A DNA stretch of 64,000 nucleotides from a virus (IMGVR_UViG_2767802123_000001:31727-95726), one strand, 5' to 3'. Shown: positions 3,423 to 57,943, counted from the first letter of the stretch. The notes: generated from the letters alone by a model not told the origin. Numbers and translations: made by a program.

Positions 3423-3427
3423 ACGGA

Positions 3428-8803: not shown

Positions 8804-8837
8804 CACTCTGTGCGGCCGGGGCAACCCCGAGCACGAC

Positions 8838-8872: not shown

Positions 8873-8888
8873 GGGGTGTTGCAGTGCG

Positions 8889-10168: not shown

Positions 10169-10371
10169 GGTGCCATCCTTCGGTTGTGGGGCCGTGCTCT
10201 GACGGCCCGTTCCTGTGTTCCTGGTTCCTTGCTCTTGATCCGCGCCCTGGGAGACCAGCACCCGTAGTCGCCGATCATGGATTAATTAAACCTTAGTTGT
10301 GTGACGCACGCAACCCTCAGACACGACAAAACCCCGGAGCGTGAAGGCTCCGGGGTTCAACCGCGCGGCAT

Positions 10372-11049
10372 TCAGGACAGAGTGAGCGGGTGGCCCGGCG
10401 CGTAGACGGCCTCACCGACACCGATCACCGTGTTGCCGGTGACGTAGACGCTGCGCACCGTCAGCACCCCCCGGTCGTTGTCCAGGCCGAACTCCGCACG
10501 CTCTTCGTCCGTGGTGGTGCGGACGTCCGCTGTCTTGGACGCCACGCGGACCTCGTTGCCGGAACGGTCCTGGTAGAGAGCCTGCCAGGTGGGATCGCAG
10601 GCCCGGGGTTCGTCGATCTCGGGGACGTACTCGGCAACGTCCACGCGCACCCACGACTGCGATGCCTGGACGACGTCGCCTCCTCGGGCCACGGTGCGCA
10701 CGCGGTTCACGCACTCGCCCTCCCCGAGGAGTTCGGCGACCCAGTCGGGCGCCTGCACCCGCTCGCTGCGCTTGTGGTTGATCGTCTCGCCGGCCTGCGT
10801 GATGCCCTGAATGCGCTTCTCGCCCACGATGAGCCGGCGCCGGTCAGCGACGAACACCCCACGCCCCTGCTGGGAGGTGACGTACCCCTCGGCCTTCAGC
10901 AGCGCGATGCCACGATAGACCGCATTGTCGCTGATCATGAACTGCTTCATCAGTGCTGCGGTGGGCGGCAGTTGGTCTCCCGGCTTCAGAGTTCCCAGGT
11001 CAATGCGTGCCCTCAGGTACGAGACCATGCGCGCGACGGTGCCAGCCAT
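10372..11049 (-). CDS. GntR/HutC-family regulator (KorSA/TraR-like)
   Basis: LKPGDQLP...LKAEGYVTSQQGRGVFV wHTH plus UTRA-like C-terminus; GAGGAG RBS. Confidence 0.85.
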   Translation of the reverse strand: MAGTVARMVSYLRARIDLGTLKPGDQLPPTAALMKQFMISDNAVYRGIALLKAEGYVTSQQGRGVFVADRRRLIVGEKRIQGITQAGETINHKRSERVQAPDWVAELLGEGECVNRVRTVARGGDVVQASQSWVRVDVAEYVPEIDEPRACDPTWQALYQDRSGNEVRVASKTADVRTTTDEERAEFGLDNDRGVLTVRSVYVTGNTVIGVGEAVYAPGHPLTLS

Positions 11050-11183
11050 CAGTTTCTCCTCGGGTCTTCCTATCGGATGTGGTTGACGGTACATCAGCTG
11101 TGCCTTAGCTTCCTAGGAGGGTTCCTGTAGGAAGTCCCCCAGGGCATTCCCCTGAATTCGATAAATCACACACGGAGGACCGC

Positions 11184-13698: not shown

Positions 13699-14784
13699 GT
13701 GACGATCATGACGGCGGCAGGGGCCGGCACGATCGCGGCCGACGGGAACGTGGCGCTGCGCACCGTGCTGGGCCTGCGCGAGAAACTGGGCACGGTCGCT
13801 CCGCGCGACCCGAAGAACCGCCGGCTCGGACCGCGCGTCCACCGGCTCGACCTCCTCCACGAGCTGTGCGCGCCGGAGACGTTCGAGCACGTCGTGGGGT
13901 GGCTGAACTCCGAACGGCTCACCAGCAACGGCACCCGGCGCGAGTACGCCGACGACGTCCGCCACTGGGCACGTGCTGCCCGGGAGCTGGTTGGCACCGA
14001 GCCCTTCTACCTCGGGGCGATCACCTCCGATGTGATCCCGGCGTGGCGCGCGTGGACCGGGGACATCGGGCTCGGGCCACGGCGGGTCAACCGCCTGGCT
14101 TCGTCGCTGACTTCGCTCATCGAGTACACCAAGTTCCGCACCCGGCTGGAGATCATCAACCCGATCACCAGGTACGACCGGCCGGTGATCGACCCGCACG
14201 ACGAGACGTCCATGACGCCGATCCTTGAAGTGCCGGAATTCCAGGCCGTGGTGGAGCAGGCGCAGACCCCACGTCAGGCCCTCGTGCCGGTGCTCATCTA
14301 CACCCTGGCCGGCCGTGTCTCGGAGTGCTGCGCGGCCGGCATGCACCACATGAAGCCGTCCGGCGGGGAGTGCAAGCTGGACCTGACCCGCAAGGGCGGC
14401 AAGGGCCGCGTGTTCACTCTCCCGCCGAAGCTGTGTGAACTCGGGGCCGTGTGCTGGCAGGGCCGGACCTCCGGGCCGCTGCTGCTCGATGACGACGACC
14501 GGCCGATGGACCGGCACGCGGTGGACCGGCTGTTGAACCGCCTCGGCCGCGCGGCCGGTGTGCTGCCGGGCCGGGACCTCACTCCGCATGTCCTGCGGGC
14601 CAGCAAGCTCACCCACATGTACGACCAGGGTGTGAAGCCCGACGACATCCGCCGGTTCGCCGACCACAGCCAGGTCGCCACGACCATGCGGTACATCAGG
14701 CGCCGGGACGATGAGGCGCTGAAGCGGACACACGCAGCGGCGGCCGTGAAGGTCTACGAGGGTTTGGTCGACCGGTTCTTGTGA
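13699..14784 (+). CDS. Tyrosine recombinase (integrase/resolvase)
   Basis: Catalytic set GRVSE, RKGGK, HVLR, DHS, TMRY. Confidence 0.9.
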   Translation: MTIMTAAGAGTIAADGNVALRTVLGLREKLGTVAPRDPKNRRLGPRVHRLDLLHELCAPETFEHVVGWLNSERLTSNGTRREYADDVRHWARAARELVGTEPFYLGAITSDVIPAWRAWTGDIGLGPRRVNRLASSLTSLIEYTKFRTRLEIINPITRYDRPVIDPHDETSMTPILEVPEFQAVVEQAQTPRQALVPVLIYTLAGRVSECCAAGMHHMKPSGGECKLDLTRKGGKGRVFTLPPKLCELGAVCWQGRTSGPLLLDDDDRPMDRHAVDRLLNRLGRAAGVLPGRDLTPHVLRASKLTHMYDQGVKPDDIRRFADHSQVATTMRYIRRRDDEALKRTHAAAAVKVYEGLVDRFL

Positions 14785-19392: not shown

Positions 19393-21387
19393 TCACCCGA
19401 TCGTGCGGGCCGCCGTGGCGAGACCCTTGGACGACGTCGTGCCGGTCATCGTCGGCTTCACGATCCGCTGGTGCCAGGCCGGCCACACCATCGCGTCCAG
19501 CCGGTCCGGTGACCAGTCCAGCTCGTCGTACCAGGTGCACATCTGGTCCTCCAGCTCCGGGAATTCACCCACCATGTGCCACCGGCCCTGCTCGGACAGG
19601 GCCGATACCGGCTCCGCGCGCACCTTCTTCCCCCGCGTCGCGCGCACGGTCTTGATGGGGATGCGTACGCCCATCGCGTCGGCGGCGGCCCGAATCGTGT
19701 TGACGGCCATGTCCCCGCCGAAGTTGACCTCTACGCAGATGTCGTCCGCGTCGTAGTCGACGGCTGCCTGAACTGCGCGCCGGCCCCACCCGTCCGGGGA
19801 CAGGTGGCACGAGCGGTCGGCGAGGACATGGCCGTGGGCGAGCTGCGCCGGGCGGCCGTCGGACCGGACATGCTCCCGCATCGCCTTGCCCACGACGACA
19901 ATGCCTTGTTCGCCCCGGCCGCCCGAGGGGTCCACGCCGACGGAAATCCGTGCAAGGTCTGGAAGATCGGCTGGGCGCAGCCGGTGGGCGTCGATCACCG
20001 CGCGGGTCCACAGCGCGTTCTCGTCCTGGTCGATGATCTCGGCGTGCAGCTCCTGGCGGCCGATCTGCGTGCTGCCGTAGGCGTCCTCCAGCGCGGCCTT
20101 GATGTCCTCGGGCAGGTGCGGGTTGTCGTACATCGACGCCCGGGTGCGCACCACGTTCTCGACCCCGCCGGACGCGAGTTTCTTGATCAGCGCCCGGGGC
20201 TTCGGCGTGGTGGAAGCCACCCAGTGCGGCCGGGGGCCGGTGCGCAGACCGAAACGCATCTGGTCCCACGTGTCGTCCAGGTACCGCCAGGCCGCCAACT
20301 CCTCCAGCCACGAGAGGCAGTTGGAGACGAGCAGGTCACCCGCGAAGAACTCGTGATCGTGCTCAACCGTCAGGTCGTACACGCGCGCGGCGCGACTGAT
20401 ACGCGAGGACCGAAGTGCACCGGCGCGAACAGGCGCGGGTCGGCTTACGGACTTGGCACTCAAACGTGTCGCCGCACACGCAGCACACCCGTTCCTCCCG
20501 TGCTCGTGACGCATCCGCACGGCACTTCGGAGAGCAGTACCGCGCTGCGACCGTGCCCCGGGACTGGAAGGAGGCCCCGCAGCGCTCACACTCGAAACTT
20601 CGGTAGACCGCGCGGGCCCACTTTGTCTGGCCGCCCCGGCTGCGCTCCTCGGGGGTGAGATTACCCCCTCGCTTGCTCCCGTCTTGTTCCATGTGAGAAC
20701 ACTATCAAGTGGCCCGACGAGTAAAGCGGGCTTCCAGCCGTCGGCCGTCGCTACCTTGTGATCCGGGGTGAGCCACGTGAACCCCGCGCCGTGGTCGTAG
20801 CGCACCACGTCCTTCACACCGTTGTCCCAGACCTCCAGTACGGTGCGCAGTCCGTTGCGGGTCCACACGCGGTCCCCGGGCCGGACGGTCTCGATGTGCC
20901 GCTCCCCGTGCTCGGTGCGCACCAGCGTGCCCTCAGCCACGCACCTGTTACCGCCGGACCGCAGGCGCTCGACGCTGCCAGGGCTGTCGGCGCCGAACAG
21001 CTTCGCCTCCGAGCCGTTGGGCCAGCGGATGACCGTGCCGCCCTGGACGGTCATCATCCGCGCCTCGGGGCTGTGCACCCGGAGCCCGGAGGGACCGGCG
21101 TAGCAGGACGTCGCCGCGTCGCCGAGGGTCGGCGCGATGATGCCTATCCAGTGCGGGGTGGGGCCGGGCAGACACGGCGGGCCCATGACGTGCTCGTGGA
21201 CGTACCGTGCGCAGGCGTCCGTCTTGCCGGCGCCACGGCCGGCGAGGAGCAACCAGCCGTACCAGTCGCCCTCAGGCGGGACCTGGTGGGGCAGTGGAGT
21301 CCAGCGCGGTTCGGACAGCGTGCGCGCGTGCATCAGCAGACGTTCGGCCGCCGCGCGGCTCAGCATCCGGTCCACCATGGAGGTCAT
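19393..21387 (-). CDS. Terminase large subunit, intein-containing (start uncertain: 21378/21387)
   Basis: Walker A GRGAGKT, Walker B WLEE, VGVDPS nuclease motif, SPDRLDA. Confidence 0.9.
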   Translation of the reverse strand: MTSMVDRMLSRAAAERLLMHARTLSEPRWTPLPHQVPPEGDWYGWLLLAGRGAGKTDACARYVHEHVMGPPCLPGPTPHWIGIIAPTLGDAATSCYAGPSGLRVHSPEARMMTVQGGTVIRWPNGSEAKLFGADSPGSVERLRSGGNRCVAEGTLVRTEHGERHIETVRPGDRVWTRNGLRTVLEVWDNGVKDVVRYDHGAGFTWLTPDHKVATADGWKPALLVGPLDSVLTWNKTGASEGVISPPRSAAGAARQSGPARSTEVSSVSAAGPPSSPGARSQRGTALRSAVRMRHEHGRNGCAACAATRLSAKSVSRPAPVRAGALRSSRISRAARVYDLTVEHDHEFFAGDLLVSNCLSWLEELAAWRYLDDTWDQMRFGLRTGPRPHWVASTTPKPRALIKKLASGGVENVVRTRASMYDNPHLPEDIKAALEDAYGSTQIGRQELHAEIIDQDENALWTRAVIDAHRLRPADLPDLARISVGVDPSGGRGEQGIVVVGKAMREHVRSDGRPAQLAHGHVLADRSCHLSPDGWGRRAVQAAVDYDADDICVEVNFGGDMAVNTIRAAADAMGVRIPIKTVRATRGKKVRAEPVSALSEQGRWHMVGEFPELEDQMCTWYDELDWSPDRLDAMVWPAWHQRIVKPTMTGTTSSKGLATAARTIG
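20320..20943 (-). mobile_element. Intein (208 aa) in the terminase
   Basis: Starts CVAEGTLV, block B TPDH, ends VYDLTVEHDHEFFAGDLLVSN followed by Cys. Confidence 0.9.
20363..20692 (-). CDS. Nested out-of-frame zinc-finger ORF inside the intein
   Basis: Two CxxC...CSxxC units (CERCG..YCSPKC; CCVCG..ACSRRC). Confidence 0.65.
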   Translation of the reverse strand: MEQDGSKRGGNLTPEERSRGGQTKWARAVYRSFECERCGASFQSRGTVAARYCSPKCRADASRAREERVCCVCGDTFECQVRKPTRACSRRCTSVLAYQSRRARVRPDG

Positions 21388-21537
21388 TGTCGGTGGAGCT
21401 GCGGCCGTTGCTTTCCGGAGCGCCACGGAGCCCGTGCCAACTGGTGATCGGCACGGGCTCCGTGGTTGCGGACTACGGGGTAAGGCGGTCCCCGCTCCGG
21501 TCCTTGGCGCCGGCCCGCGCGGCCGTCTGCGGGGCGC

Positions 21538-28019: not shown

Positions 28020-29362
28020 CAGATCGCCCCTGCCTCACGCAGCGGCACGAGGATCCGGTCCCGCACTGTGGCGGCGATGTGGGACATCATCACTGGCGGC
28101 ACGGCCCGGCCGATGCGCTCCCAGCGCTGCGCGTACGTCCCGGTGAGCACGAAGTCGGCCGGGAACCCGCCGATAGCGCGCAGCTCCTGAAGCGTCAGCT
28201 TCCGGGCCTCGGTCCAGTGTGTCGGACCTGTGAAACCCGGGCCGCCTTGCCCCTGTGCAGCCATCACCGTGTCGTACGGCCGGTCCGGGTGCTGACGTCG
28301 GACGTGAAAGTACCTCTGCGATTTCTCGCCGGGCCGTAGCTTCTCCCAGTCGTCCCCGATGGCGTACCCCTTGATGGACAAGGCCTGGCCGGTCTCCGGG
28401 TCGTGGGTGACCGGTTCCGCCTCGCCGCGCACTTGGTAGTGGCATGCGCTCGTGGCTGTTCCGCCTACCGTGATCGCTGGTGACGGTTTGTCCGTCACGT
28501 CACCTGCGCTGAACTGGCCGGACGTGTCGTGGAACACGCGGGGCTCCGCGATGACCCGAGACGGCGGGAAGTTGCCGTTCCCGGTGCCGGGGTCCGCACC
28601 GATGGTCGGGGACGGCTGGTCAGCCGCGCGCATGGACCCGCCGCCGAACCCGCCGTTGTCTCCCTGCGCGAGGATCCACGGCAGTGCGTCCCGCACGGTG
28701 TACTGGTACGGCAGCGGGCCAGGGTGCACCGGGTCCATGCCGAGGTCTTCGCGCACGCCCACGAAGATGAGCCGGTTGCGAGACTGCGGGACGCCGAGCC
28801 ACGAGGCGTCCAGCACCCGGGCGGACACGCGGTACCCGCACGCGCGCAGCCGGGCCAAGATCAGCTTGAAGTATCCCTTGGCCGTGCCCCGGACCAGCCC
28901 GGCGACATTCTCAGCGACGAACACCCGGGGCTGCGTCTCCTCGATGAGTCGGGCGTACTCAAAGAACAAGTCGTCCGTACGTTGCTGGGTGTCGCTGTAC
29001 TTCTTCACCTGGCCCCAGCCGGCCTCACGCTTGCCGGCCGTGGAGAACGAGGCGCACGGCGGTGACCCGTCGAACAGGTCGATCTCCCCGACGCCGAGGC
29101 CGCACGCGTCCAAGACGTCCTGCCCCTTGACCTCCCGGATGTCCCGGGTGTCCAGCACGGTATGCGGCGCTGCATTGGCACGGTAAGTGTCCTGCGCGGC
29201 GGGGACGAACTCAGAGGCCCACAGCATTCTGAAGCCGGCCATGCGGTAGCCGAGGGACGACCCGCCGCACCCGCTGAAAGTCGACACGGCGTTGAAGCCG
29301 TTCCACGACAGCGCCCGGATCTCCTCCATGGACGGGACGCGGTACGGGGGCTTGTCGGTCAC
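28019..29362 (-). CDS. C5-cytosine DNA methyltransferase-family enzyme, probable carboxymethyltransferase
   Basis: FSGCGG, GSPPC, ENV, QSRNR; motif X reads GRAVPP instead of GNAVPP. Confidence 0.85.
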   Translation of the reverse strand: MTDKPPYRVPSMEEIRALSWNGFNAVSTFSGCGGSSLGYRMAGFRMLWASEFVPAAQDTYRANAAPHTVLDTRDIREVKGQDVLDACGLGVGEIDLFDGSPPCASFSTAGKREAGWGQVKKYSDTQQRTDDLFFEYARLIEETQPRVFVAENVAGLVRGTAKGYFKLILARLRACGYRVSARVLDASWLGVPQSRNRLIFVGVREDLGMDPVHPGPLPYQYTVRDALPWILAQGDNGGFGGGSMRAADQPSPTIGADPGTGNGNFPPSRVIAEPRVFHDTSGQFSAGDVTDKPSPAITVGGTATSACHYQVRGEAEPVTHDPETGQALSIKGYAIGDDWEKLRPGEKSQRYFHVRRQHPDRPYDTVMAAQGQGGPGFTGPTHWTEARKLTLQELRAIGGFPADFVLTGTYAQRWERIGRAVPPVMMSHIAATVRDRILVPLREAGAI

Positions 29363-29973
29363 CGGGACTTCCCCGACCACTCGTACCCGCACTTGGGGCA
29401 CCGGTGCTCGGTCTCGATGTCCTCGTCATAGGACGGGAACTCCGTAGGTGGCACCGAGGCGGGGACGGCGGTCGCGTCGAACTCGGGTGTCTCCGCCTGC
29501 TGGCCGAACAGGTCGGCCTCGCTCACCTCGTAGCCTGTGCCCACCAGGTCGTCGTCCAGGGAAGCGAGCAGGGCCGCCAGGGCCTCGTCGTCGTAGTCGC
29601 CGTCGTCGGCCGACTTGTTGTCCACCAGGTTGATGCGCGTGGCGGTGTCGTCGTCGCACTCGATGAGGTGCGCGAGAGCGGTCGGGTCGTCGGCGTCCAC
29701 GTTGATGCAGAGCTGGCACGGCCGGTTGTGCGTCAGCTCCCAGTCCTGGCACGCCTCACGGCCGGACTCCTCGTGCCGCAGCAACGCGAGGTACGTGTGG
29801 TTCCCGGCGAGGATCGTCAGCTCCTCGCCCTGCCGGCGCACGGTGAGCGGCTTGTACTGGCCGTTGGCCCGGAGGCTGTCCAGGATCACGTCCACGTTGC
29901 CCCGGCGCGCGTTACCGGGGAACGGGGTGAGATCTTCCAGCGAAACCTGTTCGGTTCCGACGGTCGTGGTCAT
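29359..29973 (-). CDS. ParB/Srx N-terminal-domain protein with C-terminal CxxC
   Basis: PFPGNARRG, GQYKPL, ILAGNH, CPKCGYEW. Confidence 0.75.
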   Translation of the reverse strand: MTTTVGTEQVSLEDLTPFPGNARRGNVDVILDSLRANGQYKPLTVRRQGEELTILAGNHTYLALLRHEESGREACQDWELTHNRPCQLCINVDADDPTALAHLIECDDDTATRINLVDNKSADDGDYDDEALAALLASLDDDLVGTGYEVSEADLFGQQAETPEFDATAVPASVPPTEFPSYDEDIETEHRCPKCGYEWSGKSR

Positions 29974-48482: not shown

Positions 48483-49120
48483 GTGTTGCCGTGGTCATCC
48501 CGACGATCCCGGGCCGGGAGGATCTGCTGGAGCGCGCCCTGGCCTCCGTACGGGCGCAGCGGCGCCGGCCGGACCAGGTCGTCGTCGAACGCGACTCGCT
48601 GCGCACCGGAGCCGACCAGGCTCGCAACCGCGCGCTGCAACGGGTGACCACGGACGTGATTGCCTGGCTTGACGATGACGACGAAATCAAGCCCAACCAC
48701 CTTATGGCCTGCATGCGTGTAATGGAGCAGTCCTCGGAGAAGCCTGACCTGGTGTACCCGGCACCGGTAGTGCGCGGGGGCGAGGACCCCACAGCCGTGT
48801 CGGTGCAGGGCCAGTGGAGGCTTCCGTGGGGTGTCCGTTTCGGTGCGGAGCAGGAGGCCCATCTGCGACGGTTCGGGTCATTCATCCCGATGACGCACCT
48901 GGTGCGCACCGAGCTGGTCCGCACCATCGGCGGGTTCCGTCCTGGCCAGAACGTAACGACAGATGGCCTAGGTCGCCGCTACCGTGGCGAGGACGAGGAC
49001 TATCTGGTGCGCCTGCTCGACACAGGGGCCACGTTCGAGCACCTGGACGCTCGGACGTGGGTCTGGCACGTGCACCGTGGCAATACCGCCGGGCGGGGTC
49101 TCGCCCCGGCGGATATCTGA
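48479..49120 (+). CDS. GT2-family glycosyltransferase
   Basis: VAVVIPT, ARN, WLDDDD, GEDED. Confidence 0.85.
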   Translation: MSVAVVIPTIPGREDLLERALASVRAQRRRPDQVVVERDSLRTGADQARNRALQRVTTDVIAWLDDDDEIKPNHLMACMRVMEQSSEKPDLVYPAPVVRGGEDPTAVSVQGQWRLPWGVRFGAEQEAHLRRFGSFIPMTHLVRTELVRTIGGFRPGQNVTTDGLGRRYRGEDEDYLVRLLDTGATFEHLDARTWVWHVHRGNTAGRGLAPADI

Positions 49121-49400
49121 ACACGGAAACGGAGGAGTCGTACCGACCACCACAGCCACGACCGGACCACCCCCCACCCTCGCCGATGCCGTACGGCGGC
49201 GCATCGGCGAGATGACCGCCCGGGGCCAGAAGACGTTCACCGTCGCGGATTTTCCCGGCGTCGCCCGACGCGCAGGCCGGCCAGGACCCTGGCTGGAGGA
49301 CCACCTGCTCGTCCTGGAAGGCATCGGCGTGCTACGGGCCGTCAACCGACCCGGGCCGCGCACCTGGGCCGTCCGCCCCGGTGCGGAGTACCTACGGTGA
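49117..49400 (+). CDS. Small wHTH-like protein (start uncertain)
   Basis: FTVADF...GRPGPWLEDHL..L...GVL resembles the TraB C-terminus. Confidence 0.45.
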
Positions 49401-49729
49401 GCCGGCGAGTGATGAGGTTCGGGTACGTCTACGGAGGAACGGCCCGCTTCAAGGGGCAGAAATACATGCTGGACGGGACGGCCTACTCACTGGGCCGGTG
49501 TGACGAGGTGCGGCTTCGCGCGGCAGCCGTACGGGACTTGTCCCAGTCACAGAACGTTCCGCTTGCCGGTATCGAGATCACGGACTTCTGGTTCAGCGAG
49601 ATCGTCACCGAGAACGACATCCGGGACACGTCGGCGGGTACGGCGAGTGCCGACCCTTTCCGTCCCCACGCCGACCCCGGTCCGGACCCGTTCCGCCCCT
49701 GCGATGTCCCTGACGGCTGGGACACGTAA
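49397..49729 (+). CDS. Hypothetical protein
   Basis: GGAG RBS, GTGA overlap. Confidence 0.55.
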   Translation: MSRRVMRFGYVYGGTARFKGQKYMLDGTAYSLGRCDEVRLRAAAVRDLSQSQNVPLAGIEITDFWFSEIVTENDIRDTSAGTASADPFRPHADPGPDPFRPCDVPDGWDT

Positions 49730-49856
49730 ATGCGGGACACGGACAACGAGGGGCCCCGGGACATCGGGGCCCCTTTCGCGTACTTCACGGTTGCACGCCC
49801 GGGGCGACGGGTACGATGATTTAGGGAAATCATCCTGACCAAGGAACGAGGAAGTC

Positions 49857-50315
49857 ATGACCAAGCAGACCGAAGCGGCGGCCGTGGACGTTCTCACCGC
49901 CGTCACCCGGGACGACCCGGCGGCGGCACGGGCGCACATCCGGGAACTGTCCTTCCAGGGACGCGCCCTGCTCATGGCCTGGGCCGTGGAGCTGAGCCGG
50001 CTCATCCAGGACGAGCAGTACGCCTACGACGCCAAGGAGCGCCGGATCGCCCGGGAAACCCGCGAGACCGAGGCAGACGCCTCCACATGCCAGAAGATTC
50101 TGCGCGCCCGCGTCCGACGCCTCGCGCAGAGGACGGATGCGGAAGCGCTGACAGTGCGTGCTCTCGAATTTCTCGACCTCGGACGCAGCCGGCCGTGGAT
50201 CGCCGGGGAGCTGGAGAAGCTCACCGACGAGGGTGTGCTGAAGCCGGACCCCAGTGACCCGGGGCGGTACTTCATCCTGCGGGCGCCGGACGGGGACACG
50301 ACGGCCGACGTCTGA
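49857..50315 (+). CDS. Hypothetical protein with TraB-like wHTH C-terminus
   Basis: GRSRPWIAGELEKLTDEGVL; operator and leader upstream. Confidence 0.65.
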   Translation: MTKQTEAAAVDVLTAVTRDDPAAARAHIRELSFQGRALLMAWAVELSRLIQDEQYAYDAKERRIARETRETEADASTCQKILRARVRRLAQRTDAEALTVRALEFLDLGRSRPWIAGELEKLTDEGVLKPDPSDPGRYFILRAPDGDTTADV

Positions 50316-50522
50316 CGGGACATCGCGGTAGCGGGACAACGAGCCCTCACGGGACAAGACCGTGGGGGCTTCGTCGTGTCCCGGGACATCCGGCGCCGGG
50401 ACACAGGAGGTGTCCCGCACGGGACAGGGACAGCGGGACACAGCAGCCGGGACAAACACTCTGTCCCTGGTGGGACATGTCCCGGGACAAAGGTTTGCCG
50501 GGACACGGGACATGGGGACAAG
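50290..50522. repeat. Dense GGGACA/TGTCCC hexamer array
   Basis: About 19 copies counted by eye, including the palindrome GGGACATGTCCC. Confidence 0.85.
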
Positions 50523-50592
50523 TAGCGTGTACGATGATTTAAGAAAATCAGCACCGACCAAGGAATCGTGACCAAGGAAGAGAGGGCAGACG

Positions 50593-51810
50593 ATGTCCCG
50601 CATGTCCCGCACTCAGGCAGCCACCTACGGTCTGCTTGTCCCGGCCGCACTGGCCCTGGCCATGTCCGCCGACACCTCGTACCGCTTCATGGAGACCGCG
50701 CTTCAGATCTCCGACGAGACCGAGCGCATGATTCTGTGCGGCGTCGCCGAGGCCGCCATCGTCGCCCTCACGGTCTACGCCTGGGCCACCCGGACCAAGG
50801 GCCCCGCCTATCTCGCCTATGCGGCCGTGCTGGTGCAAGGCATCCCCGCCTTCACGGTCTCCGGGAGCGTCGGCGGCCCAGTGCGGGTCGTCCTCGGCCC
50901 GGTGCTGCTGGCCGTTCTCCTGCACCTGCTGCTCGGCCTGGAACTGCGCATGTCAGGGGCTAAGTCGGACAGCCTGCTCGCCTCCGCCCTGCGGGAGCTG
51001 AAGGAGCGTCTGACGGCCTTCCTGGGCATCGGCCGACGGGGCGCCGACTCCGCCGCCATCGCCCGCAGCCGCGCCGCCGACAAGGCCGTGGACCTGGCGG
51101 ACCGTCTGGCTGCCGCCCAGCCCGGCAAGCGCAAGCACACTCGCCTGGTAGGCCGTCTCGCGAAGCAGATCGACGCGGCCCGCCACGGGCTGAACGAGAC
51201 GGAGGCCGCGCAGGCGGAGGCCGCCATCGTCGCCCGCGTCGTCCGGCGTAAGTCGGTCAAGGCTCTCGCCAACATCAGTACGCGGCACGACTGGTCGCTG
51301 TCCCTTGTCCCGGCGCCGGCTGTCCCGGTCGGGGACACGGGACAGAGCGATGTCCCGACGTTCGTGTCCCCCGAGGCGGCTGTCCCCCGGGACACGGCCG
51401 ATGTCCCGGCCCCTGTTGTCCCGCAGCGGGACATGTCCCGTGTCCCGCAGGACGTTGTCCCGGCGCCCGAGCCGGTTGTCCCGGCGGCCGTGTCCCGCCC
51501 TCGGGCCGCTGTCCCGGCGACGATGTCCCGGCCGCGTCCCACCGTCCGTATCTCTCTGGACAAGACGCCCGAGGAGATCAGCGCCGAGCGGGACATGTCC
51601 CGGAGCGCGGGACAGGCGAGCGTCGATGTCCCCGAGGACGTCCGGGACAACCTGACTGGCATCGTCCGCTTTCTGATGGAGACGGGACACGACAAGGCCG
51701 AGGTCCGCGCGATTGTCCCGACTCTGCCGGGACACGGGGACACGAAGCCGGGCGGCCCGAAGTCGGAGAGCCTGCGCAAGGCGATCCAGCGGACGTTCCC
51801 CAAGGAGTAA
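50593..51810 (+). CDS. Spd-like membrane protein (plasmid spread family)
   Basis: About 4 N-terminal TM helices, coiled coil, Val-Pro repeat linker; upstream of traA/traB. Confidence 0.65.
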   Translation: MSRMSRTQAATYGLLVPAALALAMSADTSYRFMETALQISDETERMILCGVAEAAIVALTVYAWATRTKGPAYLAYAAVLVQGIPAFTVSGSVGGPVRVVLGPVLLAVLLHLLLGLELRMSGAKSDSLLASALRELKERLTAFLGIGRRGADSAAIARSRAADKAVDLADRLAAAQPGKRKHTRLVGRLAKQIDAARHGLNETEAAQAEAAIVARVVRRKSVKALANISTRHDWSLSLVPAPAVPVGDTGQSDVPTFVSPEAAVPRDTADVPAPVVPQRDMSRVPQDVVPAPEPVVPAAVSRPRAAVPATMSRPRPTVRISLDKTPEEISAERDMSRSAGQASVDVPEDVRDNLTGIVRFLMETGHDKAEVRAIVPTLPGHGDTKPGGPKSESLRKAIQRTFPKE

Positions 51811-51885
51811 CCGACGTAGAAGGCACTTGCGGCCCGGGACAGACGGGCGCACCCTTGATTTAGGTAAAGCCCTACCGGGGACAAC
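51299..51885. repeat. TGTCCC/GGGACA array mostly inside the spd-like gene
   Basis: About 30 copies by eye. Confidence 0.85.
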
Positions 51886-51936
51886 CCTGGTAGGGCTTTC
51901 GCCTTCGGAACCAGGAATCAGGAAGAGGAACCAGGA

Positions 51937-52515
51937 ATGAATCACATCGGGCAAAACCACCCTGACAACCCGTTCAGCCCGGCTGGCCGGGCCAACGGGC
52001 AGACGAACGGACAGCTCCGCGCTCGGGGCCTGGACGGCCAGGGCAACCCCCTCCCGTCGAACGGCAGCAGCGCCAAAACCGCAGGTCAGAAGGGATTCTC
52101 CCGACCGGGCGGCACACGGGGTCAGGGCATCGCACAACTCGCCCAGTCCATCGGCTCGATGGAGCTGTCCAACCAGGACGATCTGCACGCGTTCTGCGAG
52201 GCGTACCGGGCGATCCTCAACTACCTGGCCGTGTCCGCGAAGATGGCCGAAGGCCAGCTCAAGGCGGCTGCCAGGGCCAACGCACGGCAGGCGAAAGACG
52301 GGTGGATGACGCCCGCTCAGGCAGCCAAGCTGGCGCTGACGTTGCGTTCGGTTGGCAAGGATCTCGACCGCATGGCCAACTCCTGCGTAGACGGGTCCGC
52401 AAGCGCGGTCAAGGCGTGGCGCCGGTTCGAAGGCCTGCTGGACGAGCTGGAGAACGACCGCAAGGGTGTCCGTCGTCCCGGGGGCCGTCGTGGCGGCTCC
52501 TTCACCGTGGTGTAG
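51937..52515 (+). CDS. TraA-like plasmid transfer protein
   Basis: Gly/Asn-rich N-terminus then helical domain; directly upstream of traB. Confidence 0.5.
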   Translation: MNHIGQNHPDNPFSPAGRANGQTNGQLRARGLDGQGNPLPSNGSSAKTAGQKGFSRPGGTRGQGIAQLAQSIGSMELSNQDDLHAFCEAYRAILNYLAVSAKMAEGQLKAAARANARQAKDGWMTPAQAAKLALTLRSVGKDLDRMANSCVDGSASAVKAWRRFEGLLDELENDRKGVRRPGGRRGGSFTVV

Positions 52516-52529
52516 GGGCGGTGGGCGAC

Positions 52530-54518
52530 GTGTCGAACAGTCACCGCGTACGCGGATACGCCCTGTTCAGGGTGTCTGAACGCATCACTTCGTACGTCCT
52601 GCCCTGGGCCATCACCATGGCCGCGTGGCCTCTGGCTCTGGTGCTCCACCTCGTCATCGGGGACAGCCCGTTGTGGATGTCCTTTCTCGCCCTCGGGTTC
52701 GCGTATCTCGCATACGTGACCTGGTCGACCTGGGCGGTGCGCCGCCAGGAGACCCGGGTCATGGTCACGGTGTTCGTCAGCGCCGTCCTGACCTGGGAAC
52801 TCTTCGCCATCACCGTCCGTCCCTGGCAGGCCGACGTGGCCAAGGCGTGGGCGCTCGGCGGACTCGTTCTGTCGGTTGCCTGGTGCGTCCGGCACGCGGC
52901 TCTGTCGGGTGTGCGGGACTCCGACAAGTCGCCGGAGACCAGCGGAAACGACGGTTTGCTGGCCAAGGTCCGGGCGTTCAAGGACGCCAGGGTCGGCAAG
53001 GTTACGGAGTCCGAGCAGGAGCTGCGCGCCCGGGTCCACCTGGACGCCCCGACCACGGCGAAGGAGGCGCAGGACGCCCGGGAGCAGATTGCGGCCGTCG
53101 CCGGGGTCGGCGCCGACCAGGTGAAGGTGCTCAAAGTCGCAGGTCACGAGGGTCAGGTGGACGTGGCGTTCACCCGTGGGCAGGACGCCCTCAAGCCGGC
53201 CGTCTGGACCGGCCCACGCCACCTCGGGGCGTCCATCGCGGACTACCCGATCTGGCTCGGCAAGCGCACCGACGGCAGCGACATCAACTGGTGGATCGTC
53301 GGTTCCGACGACGAGGAAAACCCCAGGCCACTGGCCCACACGAAGTGCACCGGGGTGTCCGGCGCGGGCAAGACGGAGACCCTTTGCACCGCCATCCTCC
53401 AGATGCGCGAGCGCGTGGACGTCGTCCCCGTGGTCGGCGACCCGGCGAAGTACTCGCAGTCCTTCGGCGACATCTCAGAGGCGATCGGCCTGGCCGCGAC
53501 GACCCGTGAGACCACGGAGCAGCTCGTGCGGAACCTCATCCCGCTCATCGAGTACCGCGCGGGACTGTTCGGCACGCTGACCCGGGCTGATGGCGGCAAG
53601 GGCTACAAGCAGTGGGTGCCGGAGCTGTGGACGCTGCACCGCATCCCGGCGATCTTCCTGGACATCGAGGAGGCCACCGACGTGCTGATGGTGGTGGACG
53701 AGGAAGCCGACGAGGCGCTGCGCAAGCTGCGGTCGGTCGGCGTGCACTTCTGCGCGTCTACGCAGACCATGCCGCACGACAACATCAACCGGAAAACCCG
53801 TGGTCAGTTCACCCAGTCCCTGGCCCACGGGCAGAAGGAGAACCAGGACGCCAAGTACGCCCTGGAGGCGGAGACGCTGGAGGCCGGGGCCGACCCGACC
53901 AAGTGGGCCAACAACGCCCCTGGTTCGCTGTATGCCGAGGTCACGGGCACGGACAAGGTCCATTGGCCGGTCGACGGCCGGGTGCCGCGCATGAGGGCGG
54001 CCGACCGTGCGGAGATGATCGAGCGCACTCGACCGTACTGGGCTGAGCTGGACGCGGGCAGTTACCGCATCCTCGCCGAGGGCGTCGTGGACGAGCAGGC
54101 CGAGGCCGTGGAGACGGCCGGCGACGAGCCCCTGGAGGGCACCGTGGACGACGATTTCGCGCAGGTCAGCGACCTGGACCTGACCTCGGACGGCATCGAC
54201 ACGAGCGAGCCTCTGTCCGCCCCGCGCGGCGCCGGCGTCACCTTCGCCGACCCGCTGAACACCAGCCGGATGTCGACGGAGGACGCCCGCGCGGAGCTGC
54301 TGAACCGCATGCACATCCTGGTCAGCAGCGGTCAGACGGACGTCACGTTCGAGGACCTGGCCGACCTCCCGGACCTCGTCGGCCGGCCCCGTGGCTGGGT
54401 GTACGACGAGCTGGAGCAACTGGCCGACGACGGCGTGCTGCGCCGCGTCAACCCGCCCAACAAGCGGGCCGTCTACGAGGTCGCCGGGAACGTGTTCGCC
54501 GAGGCGGCGGCCATGTGA
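52530..54518 (+). CDS. traB: TraB-like FtsK/SpoIIIE conjugative DNA translocase
   Basis: N-terminal TM helices, Walker A GVSGAGKT, Walker B FLDIEEA, C-terminal wHTH GRPRGWVYDEL. Confidence 0.8.
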   Translation: MSNSHRVRGYALFRVSERITSYVLPWAITMAAWPLALVLHLVIGDSPLWMSFLALGFAYLAYVTWSTWAVRRQETRVMVTVFVSAVLTWELFAITVRPWQADVAKAWALGGLVLSVAWCVRHAALSGVRDSDKSPETSGNDGLLAKVRAFKDARVGKVTESEQELRARVHLDAPTTAKEAQDAREQIAAVAGVGADQVKVLKVAGHEGQVDVAFTRGQDALKPAVWTGPRHLGASIADYPIWLGKRTDGSDINWWIVGSDDEENPRPLAHTKCTGVSGAGKTETLCTAILQMRERVDVVPVVGDPAKYSQSFGDISEAIGLAATTRETTEQLVRNLIPLIEYRAGLFGTLTRADGGKGYKQWVPELWTLHRIPAIFLDIEEATDVLMVVDEEADEALRKLRSVGVHFCASTQTMPHDNINRKTRGQFTQSLAHGQKENQDAKYALEAETLEAGADPTKWANNAPGSLYAEVTGTDKVHWPVDGRVPRMRAADRAEMIERTRPYWAELDAGSYRILAEGVVDEQAEAVETAGDEPLEGTVDDDFAQVSDLDLTSDGIDTSEPLSAPRGAGVTFADPLNTSRMSTEDARAELLNRMHILVSSGQTDVTFEDLADLPDLVGRPRGWVYDELEQLADDGVLRRVNPPNKRAVYEVAGNVFAEAAAM

Positions 54519-54540
54519 CGGACCGGCGATTGGCGCACAC

Positions 54541-54577
54541 TCAGGGCGGGCATCTCATGTCAGAGATGCCCGCCCTG
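54541..54577. terminator. Long hairpin after traB
   Basis: TCAGGGCGGGCATCTC...GAGATGCCCGCCCTGA. Confidence 0.7.
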
Positions 54578-54766
54578 ACACGTCTCTGACGGCCCGTGGT
54601 GGCACCTCTGACGCGTCAGCAGACGCCGCCGGACTGTCCGTGACTCCAGCCATTACACGGGTCTGACAGGGGCGCTGACGGCCTCGGCGGCGCTGCGACC
54701 TAGAACTCTCTCCCGCTCGGCCCGGCCGGCGCGGACAACGACCGATGACGCAAGGACTGATGACAG

Positions 54767-55162
54767 ATGACCAAGGAACTGAACTGCACCGGATGCGGCG
54801 GCCAGGCGGTCCACACGAAGACGGTCCCGCTGTGCTCGCGGTGCGCTCTGGCCGTTGCCGAGGAGTCGTTGGGCTTCGTGTTCGACGGGCTGCGCAGCGA
54901 CGCCGGAGTGATCCAGCTCCCGGCCGCGCCGGAAGACCGGATGAGCCCGGCGGAGGCCGACGACGTGGCGTACCAGCGGCTGTCCGCGCTGCGCCGACAG
55001 GGTGCGAAGCGGGTCACGTTCGAGGACTTCAAGGATCTGCAAGAGATCACCGGCCGGTCCCGGCCGTGGGTGTACCGGTGGCTGGACGCCCGGGTGAAGG
55101 ACGGCGACCTGGTCAAGGACACGGCGGGCGAGCGCGTGGGTTACGTCTACGCCCCGGACTGA
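54767..55162 (+). CDS. Zinc finger + TraB-like wHTH protein
   Basis: CTGC..CSRC; VTFEDF..GRSRPWVYRWL. Confidence 0.65.
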   Translation: MTKELNCTGCGGQAVHTKTVPLCSRCALAVAEESLGFVFDGLRSDAGVIQLPAAPEDRMSPAEADDVAYQRLSALRRQGAKRVTFEDFKDLQEITGRSRPWVYRWLDARVKDGDLVKDTAGERVGYVYAPD

Positions 55163-55236
55163 CGCGGGCCGGGGGTTGTGCAGTCACAGGGCCTATGGTT
55201 TAGTTAATTCATCGAGACCGACCGCTGGAGGAACTG

Positions 55237-55428
55237 ATGAACTGGACCACCGAGACGCTCCGCTCCGGGATCGCGCTGGAGGTCGCCTCCGACGACCACG
55301 GGACCATGGGCGTACCGGGCACGTGGTACCGAGTCCGCCGGGGCGCTCGTGTCTCGGTGGCCACTCGCAACCGGGGTGACGCGCTCCGTCTGTTCCAGCG
55401 TCGGGTGCGGGTGGCCTCCAAGGCCTGA
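55237..55428 (+). CDS. Small hypothetical protein
   Basis: Operator 55196-55211, GGAGGA RBS. Confidence 0.6.
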   Translation: MNWTTETLRSGIALEVASDDHGTMGVPGTWYRVRRGARVSVATRNRGDALRLFQRRVRVASKA

Positions 55429-55483
55429 CCGCACCGCCCGACACCGACAGCCCCGGCGCCGACCACGGAACGAGGAACTGACC

Positions 55484-55570
55484 ATGGGTGAACGCTTCTG
55501 GAATGGACTGGGCATCCTCGCCCTCATCGCGGCAGGTGTGTTCGCCGTGACGTGGATGTCCCTGCACTGA
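55484..55570 (+). CDS. 28-aa single-TM peptide
   Basis: Leader GACCACGGAACGAGGAA; MGERFWNGLGILALIAAGVFAVTWMSLH. Confidence 0.55.
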   Translation: MGERFWNGLGILALIAAGVFAVTWMSLH

Positions 55571-55715
55571 CCGCACCACCCGACACCGACAGCCCCGGAG
55601 CCGCTACGGCCCGGGGCTTCGCCGTTTGCTGCCCGATTGGCCAGGCTGCCGCCGTGGTACAACTAATTCAGGGTCGCGGCAGCGGCTCCTGACCTAGGAA
55701 TCAAGGAATCTGACC

Positions 55716-56129
55716 ATGGAGATAGAGCGGAGGCATGCCCCGGTCCCCGGGGAGTTGCTGGAGTACCTGAAGGCCAACCCGACCGCCGCGCAGCAGGCGG
55801 CCGACGGCGGCGTCCACGTCCACGTGCACCACCACTACGCGGCCCCGGAGCCGGCTGTCCCCGCCGGGGCGATCGTGCATCAGGGCCCGGAGAAGACGGT
55901 GGCGGAGAAGGTGATCCCGTGGCTGTGGGTCGCGCTGCTGTCCTGCGTCGTCCTGACGCTGTGTGCGCTGGTGTTCGCCATGGTGGCCGTCGTCGCGGTG
56001 GCCGTCCTGGCGGCGGTGATCGTGCTCGGCCTGGTGGTCGCGCACGTCATCAACTCCCACGCCGGCGCGGCCGAGGCGAAGGCCAAGGCGGCGGAGGCGC
56101 TGAACAAGGGCAAGCACAAGAGGCGGTGA
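55716..56129 (+). CDS. Membrane protein (Spd-like)
   Basis: HVHVHHHY motif followed by a long hydrophobic hairpin. Confidence 0.6.
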   Translation: MEIERRHAPVPGELLEYLKANPTAAQQAADGGVHVHVHHHYAAPEPAVPAGAIVHQGPEKTVAEKVIPWLWVALLSCVVLTLCALVFAMVAVVAVAVLAAVIVLGLVVAHVINSHAGAAEAKAKAAEALNKGKHKRR

Positions 56130-56439
56130 GGCTCATGGCACCGCCGACCCGGAGAACCCCGGACCCGATGAGGGCCGGGGTTCTTTGCGTTGAGGGGTTG
56201 TGCGGTCGCCAGACCCATGGTTTAATTAAATCAGTCGGGAGGGATCCCGGCGGACAACTCCACAGAGAGCAGGCCTCCCGTACGTGCTGGCTGTACGGGC
56301 GTAACCATGGGACTGACGACGCCGAAGAGGGCGCGGAGAGCACCCGCGACACTGGGCAGACCCCCTCAAGGATCACGTAGCACCCGCCATGGCAGCTCTG
56401 CTCTCTGTGGGACCTGACCCACCGAACCCGGAGGATCCG

Positions 56440-56757
56440 ATGCAGCGCACGAGCGCGGACGAGGAAGACCGGCAGTCTGTCGCGCAGTTCGGCTGCACCG
56501 TGCAGGGCGCCTACGACCGGTTCAGTGATGTTCTTGACGAACGAGGTGTCCGGGCCAAACGGTACGGACCGAACCGTGGGGGCCCTGCGACGGACCGTCA
56601 GAAGGCTTACCTCCGGTCGCTGCTCGCGCAGCACGCTGGCTCGGAGACGGCAGAGGCGATTCGGAACTACTTCAACTGCTGCCGTTTGGTCCGCCGTCCG
56701 ATCAGCTTCGGCGACGTGGCAGAAGCCATCGAGGCGCTGCGCAGCCTTTCCGACTGA
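56440..56757 (+). CDS. Hypothetical protein
   Basis: GGAGG RBS; PATDRQKAYLRSL. Confidence 0.6.
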   Translation: MQRTSADEEDRQSVAQFGCTVQGAYDRFSDVLDERGVRAKRYGPNRGGPATDRQKAYLRSLLAQHAGSETAEAIRNYFNCCRLVRRPISFGDVAEAIEALRSLSD

Positions 56758-56783
56758 CCAGTCGACCACGGAACGAGGAAGCT

Positions 56784-56984
56784 ATGAACTCGGGACAGCC
56801 CCGGCTCATACGACACCCGGAAGGCGGGTACGTCTCGCCTTCCGGCAGGTACCGCATCACCGCCAAGAGGGGCGAAACCGGGCTACTGCTGTTCTGGAAG
56901 GTCCGCGACACTTCGGACCCGTCCCGGAACCTGCCGCCCTGTCACTACCTGGCGCACGCCCGAAACCGGTACGGCACCGACTGA
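56784..56984 (+). CDS. Small hypothetical protein
   Basis: Leader motif upstream. Confidence 0.55.
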   Translation: MNSGQPRLIRHPEGGYVSPSGRYRITAKRGETGLLLFWKVRDTSDPSRNLPPCHYLAHARNRYGTD

Positions 56985-57015
56985 CCCGCCCTACTGACCA
57001 CGGAACGAGGAACCC

Positions 57016-57393
57016 ATGACCGCAGCGAACCCCGCGCCCGTGCGCGTCGTCTCTTTCGGCTACGGCCACGGCGACGCCCCGGCCGCCCACCTGACCCTGG
57101 ACCTGCGCCACCACTTCCCCGGTGCGGGTGCAGACCCGGAGATGCGCGGCCGGACTATCATCCGCCAGACCGGAGGCCGCCGGGGCATCCTCGGCACCCC
57201 GGGTCTCCGGACCTTGCTGGCCGCCACGGTGCGCGCGGTCCGGGCGTACGACTCCGGGCCGTACAACCGGGCCATCGTCGTCGCGGTCGGCGGAGGACGG
57301 ATCCGCGCCGTCGTGGCCGCCGAAGCGCTCGCGCGGCGCCTGCGCCGCCGGGGCCACGACGTCCTGGTGGAGCACCACCCTGCCGCCCGCTGA
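57016..57393 (+). CDS. RapZ C-terminal-domain-like protein, possibly degenerate
   Basis: VVSFGYGHG..LDLR; the usual GCxGGxHRSV reads VGGGRIRAV. Confidence 0.6.
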   Translation: MTAANPAPVRVVSFGYGHGDAPAAHLTLDLRHHFPGAGADPEMRGRTIIRQTGGRRGILGTPGLRTLLAATVRAVRAYDSGPYNRAIVVAVGGGRIRAVVAAEALARRLRRRGHDVLVEHHPAAR

Positions 57394-57466
57394 CCCATCA
57401 ACTCCTCGGCCCCGGAGCACCCCCGCTCCGGGGCTTTGTCGACCAAGGAACGAGGAAACTGCGACC

Positions 57467-57943
57467 ATGACCGACACAGCAGGTACCTTCGCCGCCGCCT
57501 TCGCGGCCCTGTTCGTCGCGCACTCCGTCGGTGACCACTGGGTTCAGACGTCGTGGCAGGCGGCCCGCAAGGGCGACCGTTCGCGCCCCGGGCACATAGC
57601 CTGCGGCCGTCACGTCTTCGGCCTGACCGTGACCAAGGCGCTCGCGCTGCTGCTCGCCGTGCTTGTGCTCGGTCTGGAGGTCAGCGCCCTCGGGGTGGTC
57701 CTCGGCCTCGGCCTGGACGCAGGCACGCACTACTGGGCCGACCGCCGGCACACGCTGACCAGCCTCGCCCGAGTCTGCGGGAAGACGGAGTTCCACACCC
57801 TCGGCACCCCGGCGCACCCGGGCCACCCGGTGGCCGCTGACGGCGAGTACGCCCCGACCCTGGGCACCGGGGCCTATGCGCTGGACCAGTCGTTCCACCA
57901 CTTCTGGCTGTTCGTCGCTGCGCTCATCATCGCGGCCGTCTGA
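57467..57943 (+). CDS. DUF3307-like membrane protein
   Basis: AHSVGDHWVQT, HYWADRR, LDQSFH. Confidence 0.7.
   Translation: MTDTAGTFAAAFAALFVAHSVGDHWVQTSWQAARKGDRSRPGHIACGRHVFGLTVTKALALLLAVLVLGLEVSALGVVLGLGLDAGTHYWADRRHTLTSLARVCGKTEFHTLGTPAHPGHPVAADGEYAPTLGTGAYALDQSFHHFWLFVAALIIAAV

Follow-up and report, generated by a model that had tools for sequence, protein, structure and literature searches.

A native TraB-type module, probably for DNA transfer, in a circular Streptomyces phage-plasmid

Why should a genome with a full set of virion genes also carry a conjugation module of the kind found on Streptomyces plasmids? The question is raised by positions 50,593 to 57,943 of a 64,000-nucleotide stretch of viral DNA (IMGVR_UViG_2767802123_000001:31727-95726, or G000:C29:31727-95726; hereafter the window, to which coordinates refer unless stated otherwise). 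The window is a part of contig C29 from an 8.23-Mb, 120-contig assembly of ~71% GC, that is, a Streptomyces-type genome. The block contains a gene for TraB, the DNA pump of Streptomyces conjugation, together with putative accessory genes. We conclude, with a probability of about 0.7, that the block serves DNA transfer and spread and is native to a temperate tailed phage maintained as a circular plasmid of ~95.6 kb, a phage-plasmid. The genomic part of this claim, namely a native, conserved TraB-type module in a Streptomyces phage-plasmid, is secure; as judged from its genes, the element is likely to have two ways of spreading, by virions and by passage between hyphae.

The central gene of the block is the following.

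52530-54518, plus strand: traB, 662 amino acids (aa), a predicted membrane-anchored FtsK/SpoIIIE-type double-stranded DNA translocase with a C-terminal winged helix

The open reading frame (ORF) was listed as 52302-54518 (738 aa), the start at 52530 being the most likely one by the length match to the orthologue (662 aa) in plasmid pS1D4-14.2. The product matches the NCBIfam model NF041214, plasmid_TraB (E 4e-87, 293 bits, profile positions 3-626 of 639) and phrog_24831 (4e-51), and is 24-27% identical to plasmid TraB proteins. It contains the Walker motifs GVSGAGKT and IFLDIEEA, and in an alignment of 61 homologues G280 and K281 of Walker A and E381 of Walker B are invariant. Searches with the single sequence were empty, both in Pfam (no FtsK match) and with phmmer against PDB (nothing), and an alignment was needed to see the FtsK link of TraB at the sequence level: the family profile of the 61 homologues matches the FtsK structures 2ius and 2iuu at ~1e-15 (best value 8.5e-16, for 2ius), and PF01580 is matched by 23 of the 61 family members.

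The AlphaFold2 model (predicted local distance difference test score, pLDDT, 87.5) begins with four helices, continues with a small beta domain and the motor, and ends, after a disordered linker (529-575), in a winged helix. The four helices are long (11-125, pLDDT around 90), and residues 26-120 contain four hydrophobic segments; the winged helix is modelled as H-H-H-beta-beta at 583-651. FtsK motor domains are the top Foldseek matches of the model (~1e-14). The C-terminal motif GRxRxWVY...L is kept in relatives, and traB is intact in all of them; its dN/dS is 0.31-0.47 in comparisons with the eight close relatives and 0.67 in that with L019, which is 50% identical. A tblastn search with TraB in 50,697 phage records, pZL12 included, gave no match.

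What kind of molecule carries this gene? C29 is 95,726 bp long (69.4% GC) and begins and ends with the same 99 bp, which leaves a molecule of 95,627 bp. Identical contig ends usually point to a circular or concatemeric molecule. No similarity of C29 to any other contig of the assembly was found at E 1e-20. Given the end overlap and the lack of matches to other contigs, C29 is a separate replicon and not a prophage with chromosomal junctions; on this assembly-level evidence it is an extrachromosomal circular replicon. Its homologue pS1D4-14.2 was deposited as a plasmid. The phage and plasmid genes of the replicon include:

1-525 (cut by the window start), minus strand: major tail protein (PHROG match)
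within 1-8384, minus strand: phrog_779 protein (PHROG match)
1461-3320, minus strand: major capsid protein (phrog_777, 1e-122)
3428-6442, minus strand: MuF/protease fusion (PHROG match)
6426-8384, minus strand: portal (phrog_776, 8.5e-132)
13699-14784, plus strand: tyrosine integrase of the element (PF00589, 1.8e-16), 36 kb from traB
19393-21426, minus strand: TerL with a Hint (intein) insertion (Terminase_6N, Hint_2, Terminase_6C; phrog_2)
29359-29973, minus strand: ParB-like protein (phrog_723, 2e-38)
C29 11356-12150 (contig coordinates, outside the window): ParA ATPase (phrog_164, 1.5e-43; AAA_31, 1e-36)

The PHROG matches of the virion genes in 1-8384 range from 1e-33 to 1e-132. A head-tail adaptor, a tail-fibre N-terminus, a 1163-aa tape measure and an endolysin are encoded, like ParA, on the part of C29 outside the window, while DNA methyltransferases, a 1509-aa primase-helicase-polymerase fusion, a helicase and an exonuclease are also encoded within it. 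The integrase is 83% identical in pS1D4-14.2 and is conserved along with the phage backbone. C29 is a complete siphovirus-type genome with morphogenesis and lysis sets, plus plasmid partition genes. The suggestion of the preliminary description that a phage-plasmid carries the TraB module is supported by the 99-bp end overlap, the ParA- and ParB-like genes and the full virion set. No tRNA was found within the window. The Hint_2 domain of TerL lies between the N-terminal part and the Terminase_6N match, hence the intein is within the ATPase domain; at the TerL position of pS1D4-14.2, HNH and 'terminase family' proteins are annotated as separate ORFs.

These genes also bear on whether the virion route works at all. 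The element could be a conjugative plasmid with a defective or domesticated prophage, forming no infectious particles or particles resembling gene transfer agents or tailocins, so that TraB would be its only spread route. The intein in TerL, and the separate HNH and terminase ORFs of pS1D4-14.2, would fit such a decay, as would the remote position of the capsid (best identity ~33% in 50,697 phage records, no cultured relative) and the origin of all known isolate-derived copies from bacterial genome assemblies. However, inteins are compatible with function, none of the endolysin, portal, protease, tape measure and tail genes is missing, and even relatives with a capsid identity as low as 63% have all morphogenesis genes intact and in collinear order. 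Moreover, five metagenome-derived IMG/VR relatives of 84-98 kb have direct terminal repeats and a CheckV completeness of 100%. We therefore regard a defective prophage as improbable.

If the block is native to the replicon, it should recur at the same place in related elements. C29 is collinear over its full length, the block included, with the 98.8-kb pS1D4-14.2 (L008; Streptomyces sp. S1D4-14), at 68-83% nucleotide identity. S. africanus and Streptomyces sp. NPDC017936 each have a 92-kb contig with a TraB that is 79-80% identical, and nine IMG/VR genomes of 60-98 kb have one that is 34-86% identical. Across 11 relatives TraB identity is 34-86%, and the block is collinear in every relative examined. 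The capsid gene lies on the same contig as TraB in 8 of the 9 records searched (L015 and L022 stand outside this count). In eight relatives the TraB and capsid identities (84/94, 80/91, 82/89, 73/87, 79/84, 74/82, 75/81 and 50/63%, respectively) co-vary, with a Spearman coefficient of ~0.8 computed by hand. Even a 36%-identical TraB resides on a 90.6-kb contig with the gene order of C29 (helicase ... glycosyltransferase - 432-aa - 134-aa - TraB ... methyltransferase - glycosyltransferase - epimerase). Clustering of the TraB subfamily at 90% yields at least 210 clusters, and clustering at 50% yields 405 representatives (E<=1e-3). Each of the 120 TraB homologue clusters listed is without a name or called 'hypothetical' and lacks a Pfam domain, and the longest contigs of these clusters are concentrated at 75-107 kb. 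Module and capsid are shown by these gene comparisons to be inherited together across a large lineage.

The opposite possibility is that a separate actinomycete integrative and conjugative element (AICE) or a small plasmid has recently been inserted in the phage genome, or that the contig is an assembly chimera. TraA-like, TraB, PapZ_C and membrane proteins are indeed the gene content of an AICE, and a GntR regulator and an integrase are present elsewhere on the contig. Yet a search for att-like direct repeats around the block (45-62 kb) found none, only promoter and leader families of the element being returned, and family scans with hidden Markov models (HMMs) detected no integrase, excisionase or replicase among the block ORFs. 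The GC content of the block is that of the rest of the element, phage promoters and leaders occur inside it, and the same block is in the same place in at least ten relatives with TraB identity of 36-86%. Since synteny is conserved, att repeats are lacking, element promoters are internal and GC is uniform, the block is not a recent insertion; conserved synteny refutes this reading, which we give next to no weight. The att sites of a separate AICE, which the preliminary description had named among the findings that would refute its proposal, do not bound the block, and the sharing of the block by related phages, which it had suggested to check, is seen in the relatives examined. On comparative grounds, we take the block to be native and conserved, an old capture rather than an inserted AICE; the module appears to share ancestry with AICE and plasmid tra modules and to have been captured long ago.

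The sister plasmid has some peculiarities of record. In PLSDB, pS1D4-14.2 (NZ_CP041606.1) is typed as 'non-mobilizable', and its TraB is annotated as a 'hypothetical protein'. The record is marked linear, yet both its ends fall within the region collinear with C29; neither an end overlap nor terminal inverted repeats were found at them.

The genes around traB, including three stand-alone paralogues of its winged helix-turn-helix (wHTH) domain, are as follows.

48984-49400 (maximal ORF, start uncertain), plus strand: stand-alone TraB-like wHTH paralogue 1, the wHTH at ~49212-49397
49857-50315, plus strand: stand-alone TraB-like wHTH paralogue 2, 152 aa, with a variant operator and leader upstream
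50593-51810, plus strand: SpdB/DUF2637-like membrane protein, 405 aa, by architecture, position and homology to pZL12.73c
51937-52515, plus strand: traA-like gene, 192 aa, 15 bp upstream of traB (NF041213, E 8e-5)
54767-55162, plus strand: stand-alone TraB-like wHTH paralogue 3, 131 aa (NF041214 positions 557-625, E 3.6e-8)
55484-55570 (28 aa) and 55716-56129 (137 aa), plus strand: single-transmembrane proteins, by hydrophobicity possible Spd-type spread proteins
57016-57393, plus strand: RapZ C-terminal-domain (PapZ_C) protein (PF22740, 8.6e-9, 36 bits against a cut-off of 27)
57467-57943, plus strand: DUF3307-like membrane protein, 158 aa (PF11750, 0.0023, below cut-off with 18.4 against 23 bits)

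The product of 50593-51810 has a conserved N-terminal part of ~240 aa with four transmembrane segments, seen as four N-terminal hydrophobic segments, a repeat-encoded linker rich in Pro, Val and Arg, and a conserved C-terminal part of ~60 aa. It matches no HMM family, and no Pfam family at E<=1, including PF10935 and PF27080/PF27079. Language-model features place it nearest to DUF2637 clusters (0.93) and SpdB_N clusters (0.85). Its first 223 residues are 41% identical to pZL12.73c over 217 residues (E 5e-32), and the identity to the pS1D4-14.2 orthologue, 58%, covers the N-terminal part only. Hence the protein is SpdB-like by architecture and position, and not a member of the SpdB/DUF2637 family. 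The SpdB-like gene of pS1D4-14.2 is interrupted behind its repeat region; the ORF that follows, at 10131-10718 of that plasmid, has a Cys-rich HNH/endonuclease-VII-like start and closes with the C-terminal ~45 residues conserved in the C29 protein, which resembles an insertion or fusion of the homing-endonuclease type.

The match of the traA-like gene to NF041213 is weak (22.7 bits against a cut-off of 80); its position is that of the PF28214 TraA-like gene in an AICE, and it is 50-79% conserved in relatives. Paralogue 1 shares GRxxPW...L..L...GVLR with the C-terminus of TraB, and paralogue 3 was recovered by a self-search of the genome at 4e-5. The 28-aa and 137-aa proteins match no family; the latter is present in all close relatives and in L019. 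The RapZ-C gene was found in five relatives, and a classical chromosomal AICE has a PapZ_C gene two genes downstream of TraB. The DUF3307-like protein matches phrog_2470, a membrane protein family (1.8e-14), and is 46% identical to a pZL12 ORF. Thus, from the gene list drawn up earlier, traB and RapZ-C are clear by HMM, while the labels 'spd-like' and 'DUF3307-like' were given on weak evidence and the traA-like match is weak. At 54546-54576, 28 bp past the traB stop, there is a GC-rich inverted repeat GGCGGGCATCTC...GAGATGCCCGCC, which likely marks the transcript end of a unit comprising the spdB-like, traA and traB genes. A scan for consensus promoters and terminators was uninformative in this high-GC DNA and missed the repeat, which is without a T tract.

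If the module is an integral part of the element, its genes should also be under the control of signals used elsewhere in C29. Two such signals stand at the head of the module:

50526-50592, plus strand: variant promoter/operator GTACGATGATTTAAGAAAATCA followed by the GACCAAGGAA leader, preceding the SpdB-like gene
49808-49862: sister copy of the variant promoter/operator, preceding wHTH paralogue 2

The operator core GATGATTTAAGAAAATC occurs in nine copies within three mismatches in the window (0 expected), and the leader GACCAAGGAA..GAGG in 14 copies (0.46 expected). The whole of C29 contains more than 25 copies, on both strands, with a fixed GGGGTTG-N17-TATGAT geometry; the pattern is GGGGTTG-N17-TATGATTTAATTAAGTCATC, with the leader and then a start codon behind it. 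An exact search with the 28-mer operator returned the query copy only, the motif being seen with the shorter core. Further promoters in or at the block lie at 55172, 56194 and 57997, and leaders at 55459, 56762, 56994, 57439 and 58044. As copies of the element-wide promoter/operator and leader occur inside the block, we consider the tra module to belong to the regulon of C29, for which these motifs are direct evidence at the sequence level. The operator and leader that had been noted before the spd-like gene (50535-50580) are real, and the proposed wiring of the module into phage regulation is supported by the element-wide promoters and leaders running through the block.

The promoters at 49808 and 50526 form a subclass of their own, GTACGATGATTTA(GGG/AGA)AAATCA. 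Their operator centres, at 49808-49832 and 50526-50550, read GATTTA(GGG/AGA)AAATC instead of GATTTAATTAAATC. In pS1D4-14.2 the same variant subclass (GATTTAAGGAAATC) is found at both equivalent sites. These variant promoters may constitute a separately regulated class.

A regulator encoded far from the module had been proposed as its partner.

10372-11094, minus strand: GntR/UTRA (HutC-type) regulator (GntR 1e-13, UTRA 3e-5)

The GntR and UTRA domains are confirmed. The role of a conserved KorSA/TraR-type partner of the module was rejected, as the gene is present in only two of the five complete relatives and is absent from pS1D4-14.2. It lies in the region from the portal to 11.1 kb (8889-11094, minus strand), where an ATP-grasp-like ORF and the GntR/UTRA gene are not conserved in pS1D4-14.2, which has an XRE regulator and a PH-domain protein at the equivalent place; by this comparison, the region is a variable accessory slot.

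Where might TraB bind? The DNA at the head of the module is rich in short repeats. Within 49539-51878 (2.4 kb) there are 58 copies of GGGACA/TGTCCC, with the consensus CCGGGACA, compared with 39 in the other 61.6 kb of the window. The density of CGGGACA is 17.6 per kb in the cluster; elsewhere in the 8.1-Mb genome it is 0.22 per kb, and no further clusters of the GGGACA type were found there. The copies, situated 0.65-3 kb upstream of traB, form two main arrays and one small cluster:

49539-49763: small GGGACA cluster, six copies, upstream of wHTH paralogue 2
50293-50520: GGGACA array 1, 19 copies, 15 of them on the plus strand, ending at the -35 of the SpdB-like gene promoter
51299-51878: GGGACA array 2, 30 copies, in the linker-coding part of the SpdB-like gene

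Array 2 is inverted relative to array 1, since most of its first 19 copies are on the minus strand, and the SpdB-like gene's conserved 5' part lies between the two arrays. Array 2 encodes a protein sequence of low complexity (VP.. and MSR.. repeats), and the DNA repeats appear to overlie the coding sequence of a linker.

Among the relatives, L010-L015, L018 and L019 retain the arrays. L016 and pS1D4-14.2 have CGAAAGC/CGAGAGC repeats in place of array 2, with CCGGGAC repeats kept at the array 1 position; the latter are present there in pS1D4-14.2 and in all relatives of the GGGACA type. The core CCGGGAC differs in one of seven bases from TCCGGGTC, the reverse complement of GACCCGGA, which is the sequence recognized by pSVH1 TraB (PMC5133688). 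The recognition helix of TraB in L016 is that of the GGGACA-type relatives. Thus, the helix does not co-vary with the array 2 motif, and array 2 was not assigned to TraB. Since the helix is unchanged where the array 2 motif has changed, array 1 is the better candidate for the TraB site, that is, a candidate clt. In L020 (IMGVR_UViG_3300036805_000098, a 60-kb fragment whose TraB is 34% identical), 62 copies of CGGACA/CCGGAC lie upstream of traB at ~8000-9900; CCGGGACA is longer than this repeat by one base. A homologue of the C29 capsid was not found on the 60-kb fragment.

From these features a mechanism may be proposed. TraB hexamers would be anchored in the hyphal membrane, their C-terminal winged helices would recognize the repeated CCGGGACA words by the first tra gene, as at a clt-like site, and the motor would drive the plasmid prophage, as double-stranded DNA, into an adjacent hypha. 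Passage through septa inside the recipient mycelium would then be assisted by the SpdB-like and small membrane proteins. These TraB and Spd transfer steps would thus give the element a capsid-free spread route alongside virions, as shown experimentally for pZL12.

The same genes could serve a narrower purpose. If the module, though native, acts only in the phage life cycle within one mycelium, it would move DNA across cross-walls or into spore compartments in the manner of SpoIIIE/FtsK, and there would be no true conjugation. In Streptomyces plasmids TraB and Spd proteins also drive intramycelial spread through septa (PMC5133688). The module of C29 includes several small membrane proteins, its tra genes have a variant phage operator and leader, which suggests control by the phage programme, and the host chromosome has no GGGACA clusters that would permit its mobilization. 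On the other hand, in every studied plasmid the same TraB does both inter-mycelial transfer and spread, and pZL12, which shares the SpdB-like protein, is reported to transfer conjugally (PMC3583192). The two roles are not separable from sequence. We consider a function confined to one mycelium unlikely, albeit less so than a defective prophage.

Several observations weigh against a native transfer module in a functional phage-plasmid. With 293 bits TraB does not reach the equivalogue cut-off of NF041214, 800 bits; it represents a divergent subfamily, TraB-type rather than a plasmid equivalogue, and its activity is assumed. The dN/dS of 0.3-0.5 for traB indicates that constraint is not strong. 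The arrays are ~10x larger than known clt sites and partly inside a coding region, and the motif of array 2 differs in two relatives with an unchanged TraB recognition helix, so array 2 may belong to another protein, e.g. one of the three wHTH paralogues. No KorA/TraR-type repressor conserved with the module was found among the relatives compared. Finally, particle production by C29 is assumed from its genes, the capsid having no closer cultured phage than those at ~33% identity in the 50,697 records.

A more far-reaching reading can be put forward only tentatively, and we think it rather doubtful. In a large unannotated lineage of ~75-107-kb Streptomyces phage-plasmids, TraB-driven capsid-free movement, both from one hyphal compartment to the next and from mycelium to mycelium, would belong to the core of the life cycle and be regulated by the phage. 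The oppositely oriented CCGGGACA arrays, 10x any described clt, would be a loading platform for TraB, and the three wHTH paralogues, by binding the arrays or leaving them free, would shift the element between mating and virion production.

The closest precedent for a native module in a phage-plasmid is pZL12 (phage ZL12, GQ919031), described as a Streptomyces plasmid-phage with a conjugal transfer locus and a lytic phage cycle (Zhong et al. 2010, J Bacteriol 192:3747; PMC3583192, PMC4487206). Its transfer is stated to depend on a major tra gene along with two neighbouring genes (PMC3583192), and it is described as a well-characterized plasmid with phage particle proteins and ParAB (PMC4487206). 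Like C29, it is a circular ~90-kb replicon (90.4 kb) with tailed-phage genes, ParA/ParB and an integrase, pSLE1 being a relative, and it has an FtsK-like Tra protein with adjacent membrane genes, the FtsK-like gene (71c) being annotated next to 72c and 73c. At the profile level pZL12.71c is a remote TraB homologue (hhalign probability 99.1%); the BLASTP comparison of the two gives E 1.1, so the motors align only by profiles. We infer that pZL12.73c, two genes from the FtsK-like 71c, is part of the traA-traC locus, an assignment that is ours rather than the paper's. In contrast to these likenesses, 9 of 112 C29 ORFs match pZL12, at 28-46% identity, and neither capsid nor portal is among them; C29 belongs to a different phage lineage. 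No array of the GGGACA type was found in pZL12. Conjugal transfer and a lytic cycle are reported for pZL12; for C29 both are predicted from its genes.

With the plasmid TraB systems of pSVH1, pIJ101, pSN22 and pJV1 C29 shares the order of transmembrane anchor, FtsK motor and wHTH in TraB; a traA-like gene upstream, small membrane genes downstream and short repeats nearby are likewise features of the plasmid TraB/clt/Spd systems. It differs in having 58 repeats instead of a handful, three extra stand-alone wHTH paralogues and a phage genome as the host replicon. A 32%-identical TraB (P0150, L024) resides in a chromosomal AICE with the order GntR/UTRA, NUDIX, TraA-like, TraB, small gene, PapZ_C, DnaB/DUF3987 replicase, HTH_17 and integrase. 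The sequence of TraA-like gene, TraB, small gene and PapZ_C, and the GntR/UTRA regulator family, are thus common to C29 and AICEs of the pSAM2 type; unlike them, C29 has no int, xis or rep genes by the module and no att borders, and its GntR is not conserved. With its motor fold and a winged helix that would likewise read short oriented 8-bp words, C29 TraB resembles FtsK and SpoIIIE, which are guided by FtsK-orienting polar sequences (KOPS) and SpoIIIE recognition sequences (SRS). The words of C29 are, however, packed in a 2.4-kb locus instead of being skewed along a chromosome, and its two main arrays have opposite polarity; a role of this polarity in directionality is speculative.

Being a temperate phage that is maintained in plasmid form and has partition genes, C29 is also like the classical phage-plasmids of the P1, N15 and SSU5 groups (PMC7969092). 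The survey of Pfeifer et al. 2021 relied on CONJscan, i.e. on relaxase and mating-pair-formation genes, and Streptomyces is not mentioned there (PMC7969092). No description of TraB in the present phage-plasmid lineage was found in the literature searched. To our knowledge, CONJscan cannot detect relaxase-free TraB systems. The concept itself is already known, pZL12 being the experimental precedent in a different lineage, and C29 is a new lineage of a little-known kind.

Relaxase-free TraB systems are missed by surveys of phage-plasmids, since these seek relaxase and mating-pore genes, and mobility is hidden where TraB homologues are called 'hypothetical' and the sister plasmid pS1D4-14.2 'non-mobilizable'. 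This bears on estimates of gene flow in Streptomyces and on how 'plasmids' and 'prophages' in these genomes are to be read. The lineage-wide retention of both a DNA pump and a capsid over a long divergence suggests that two transmission routes are a stable strategy in mycelial hosts, in which septa and the limited diffusion of virions may favour transfer by contact. Either pS1D4-14.2 or the present strain would be a tractable system for studying the choice of a single replicon between mating and lysis. If capsid-free TraB movement is indeed a core part of the life cycle, it would be a bacterial-virus counterpart of the movement proteins of plant viruses.

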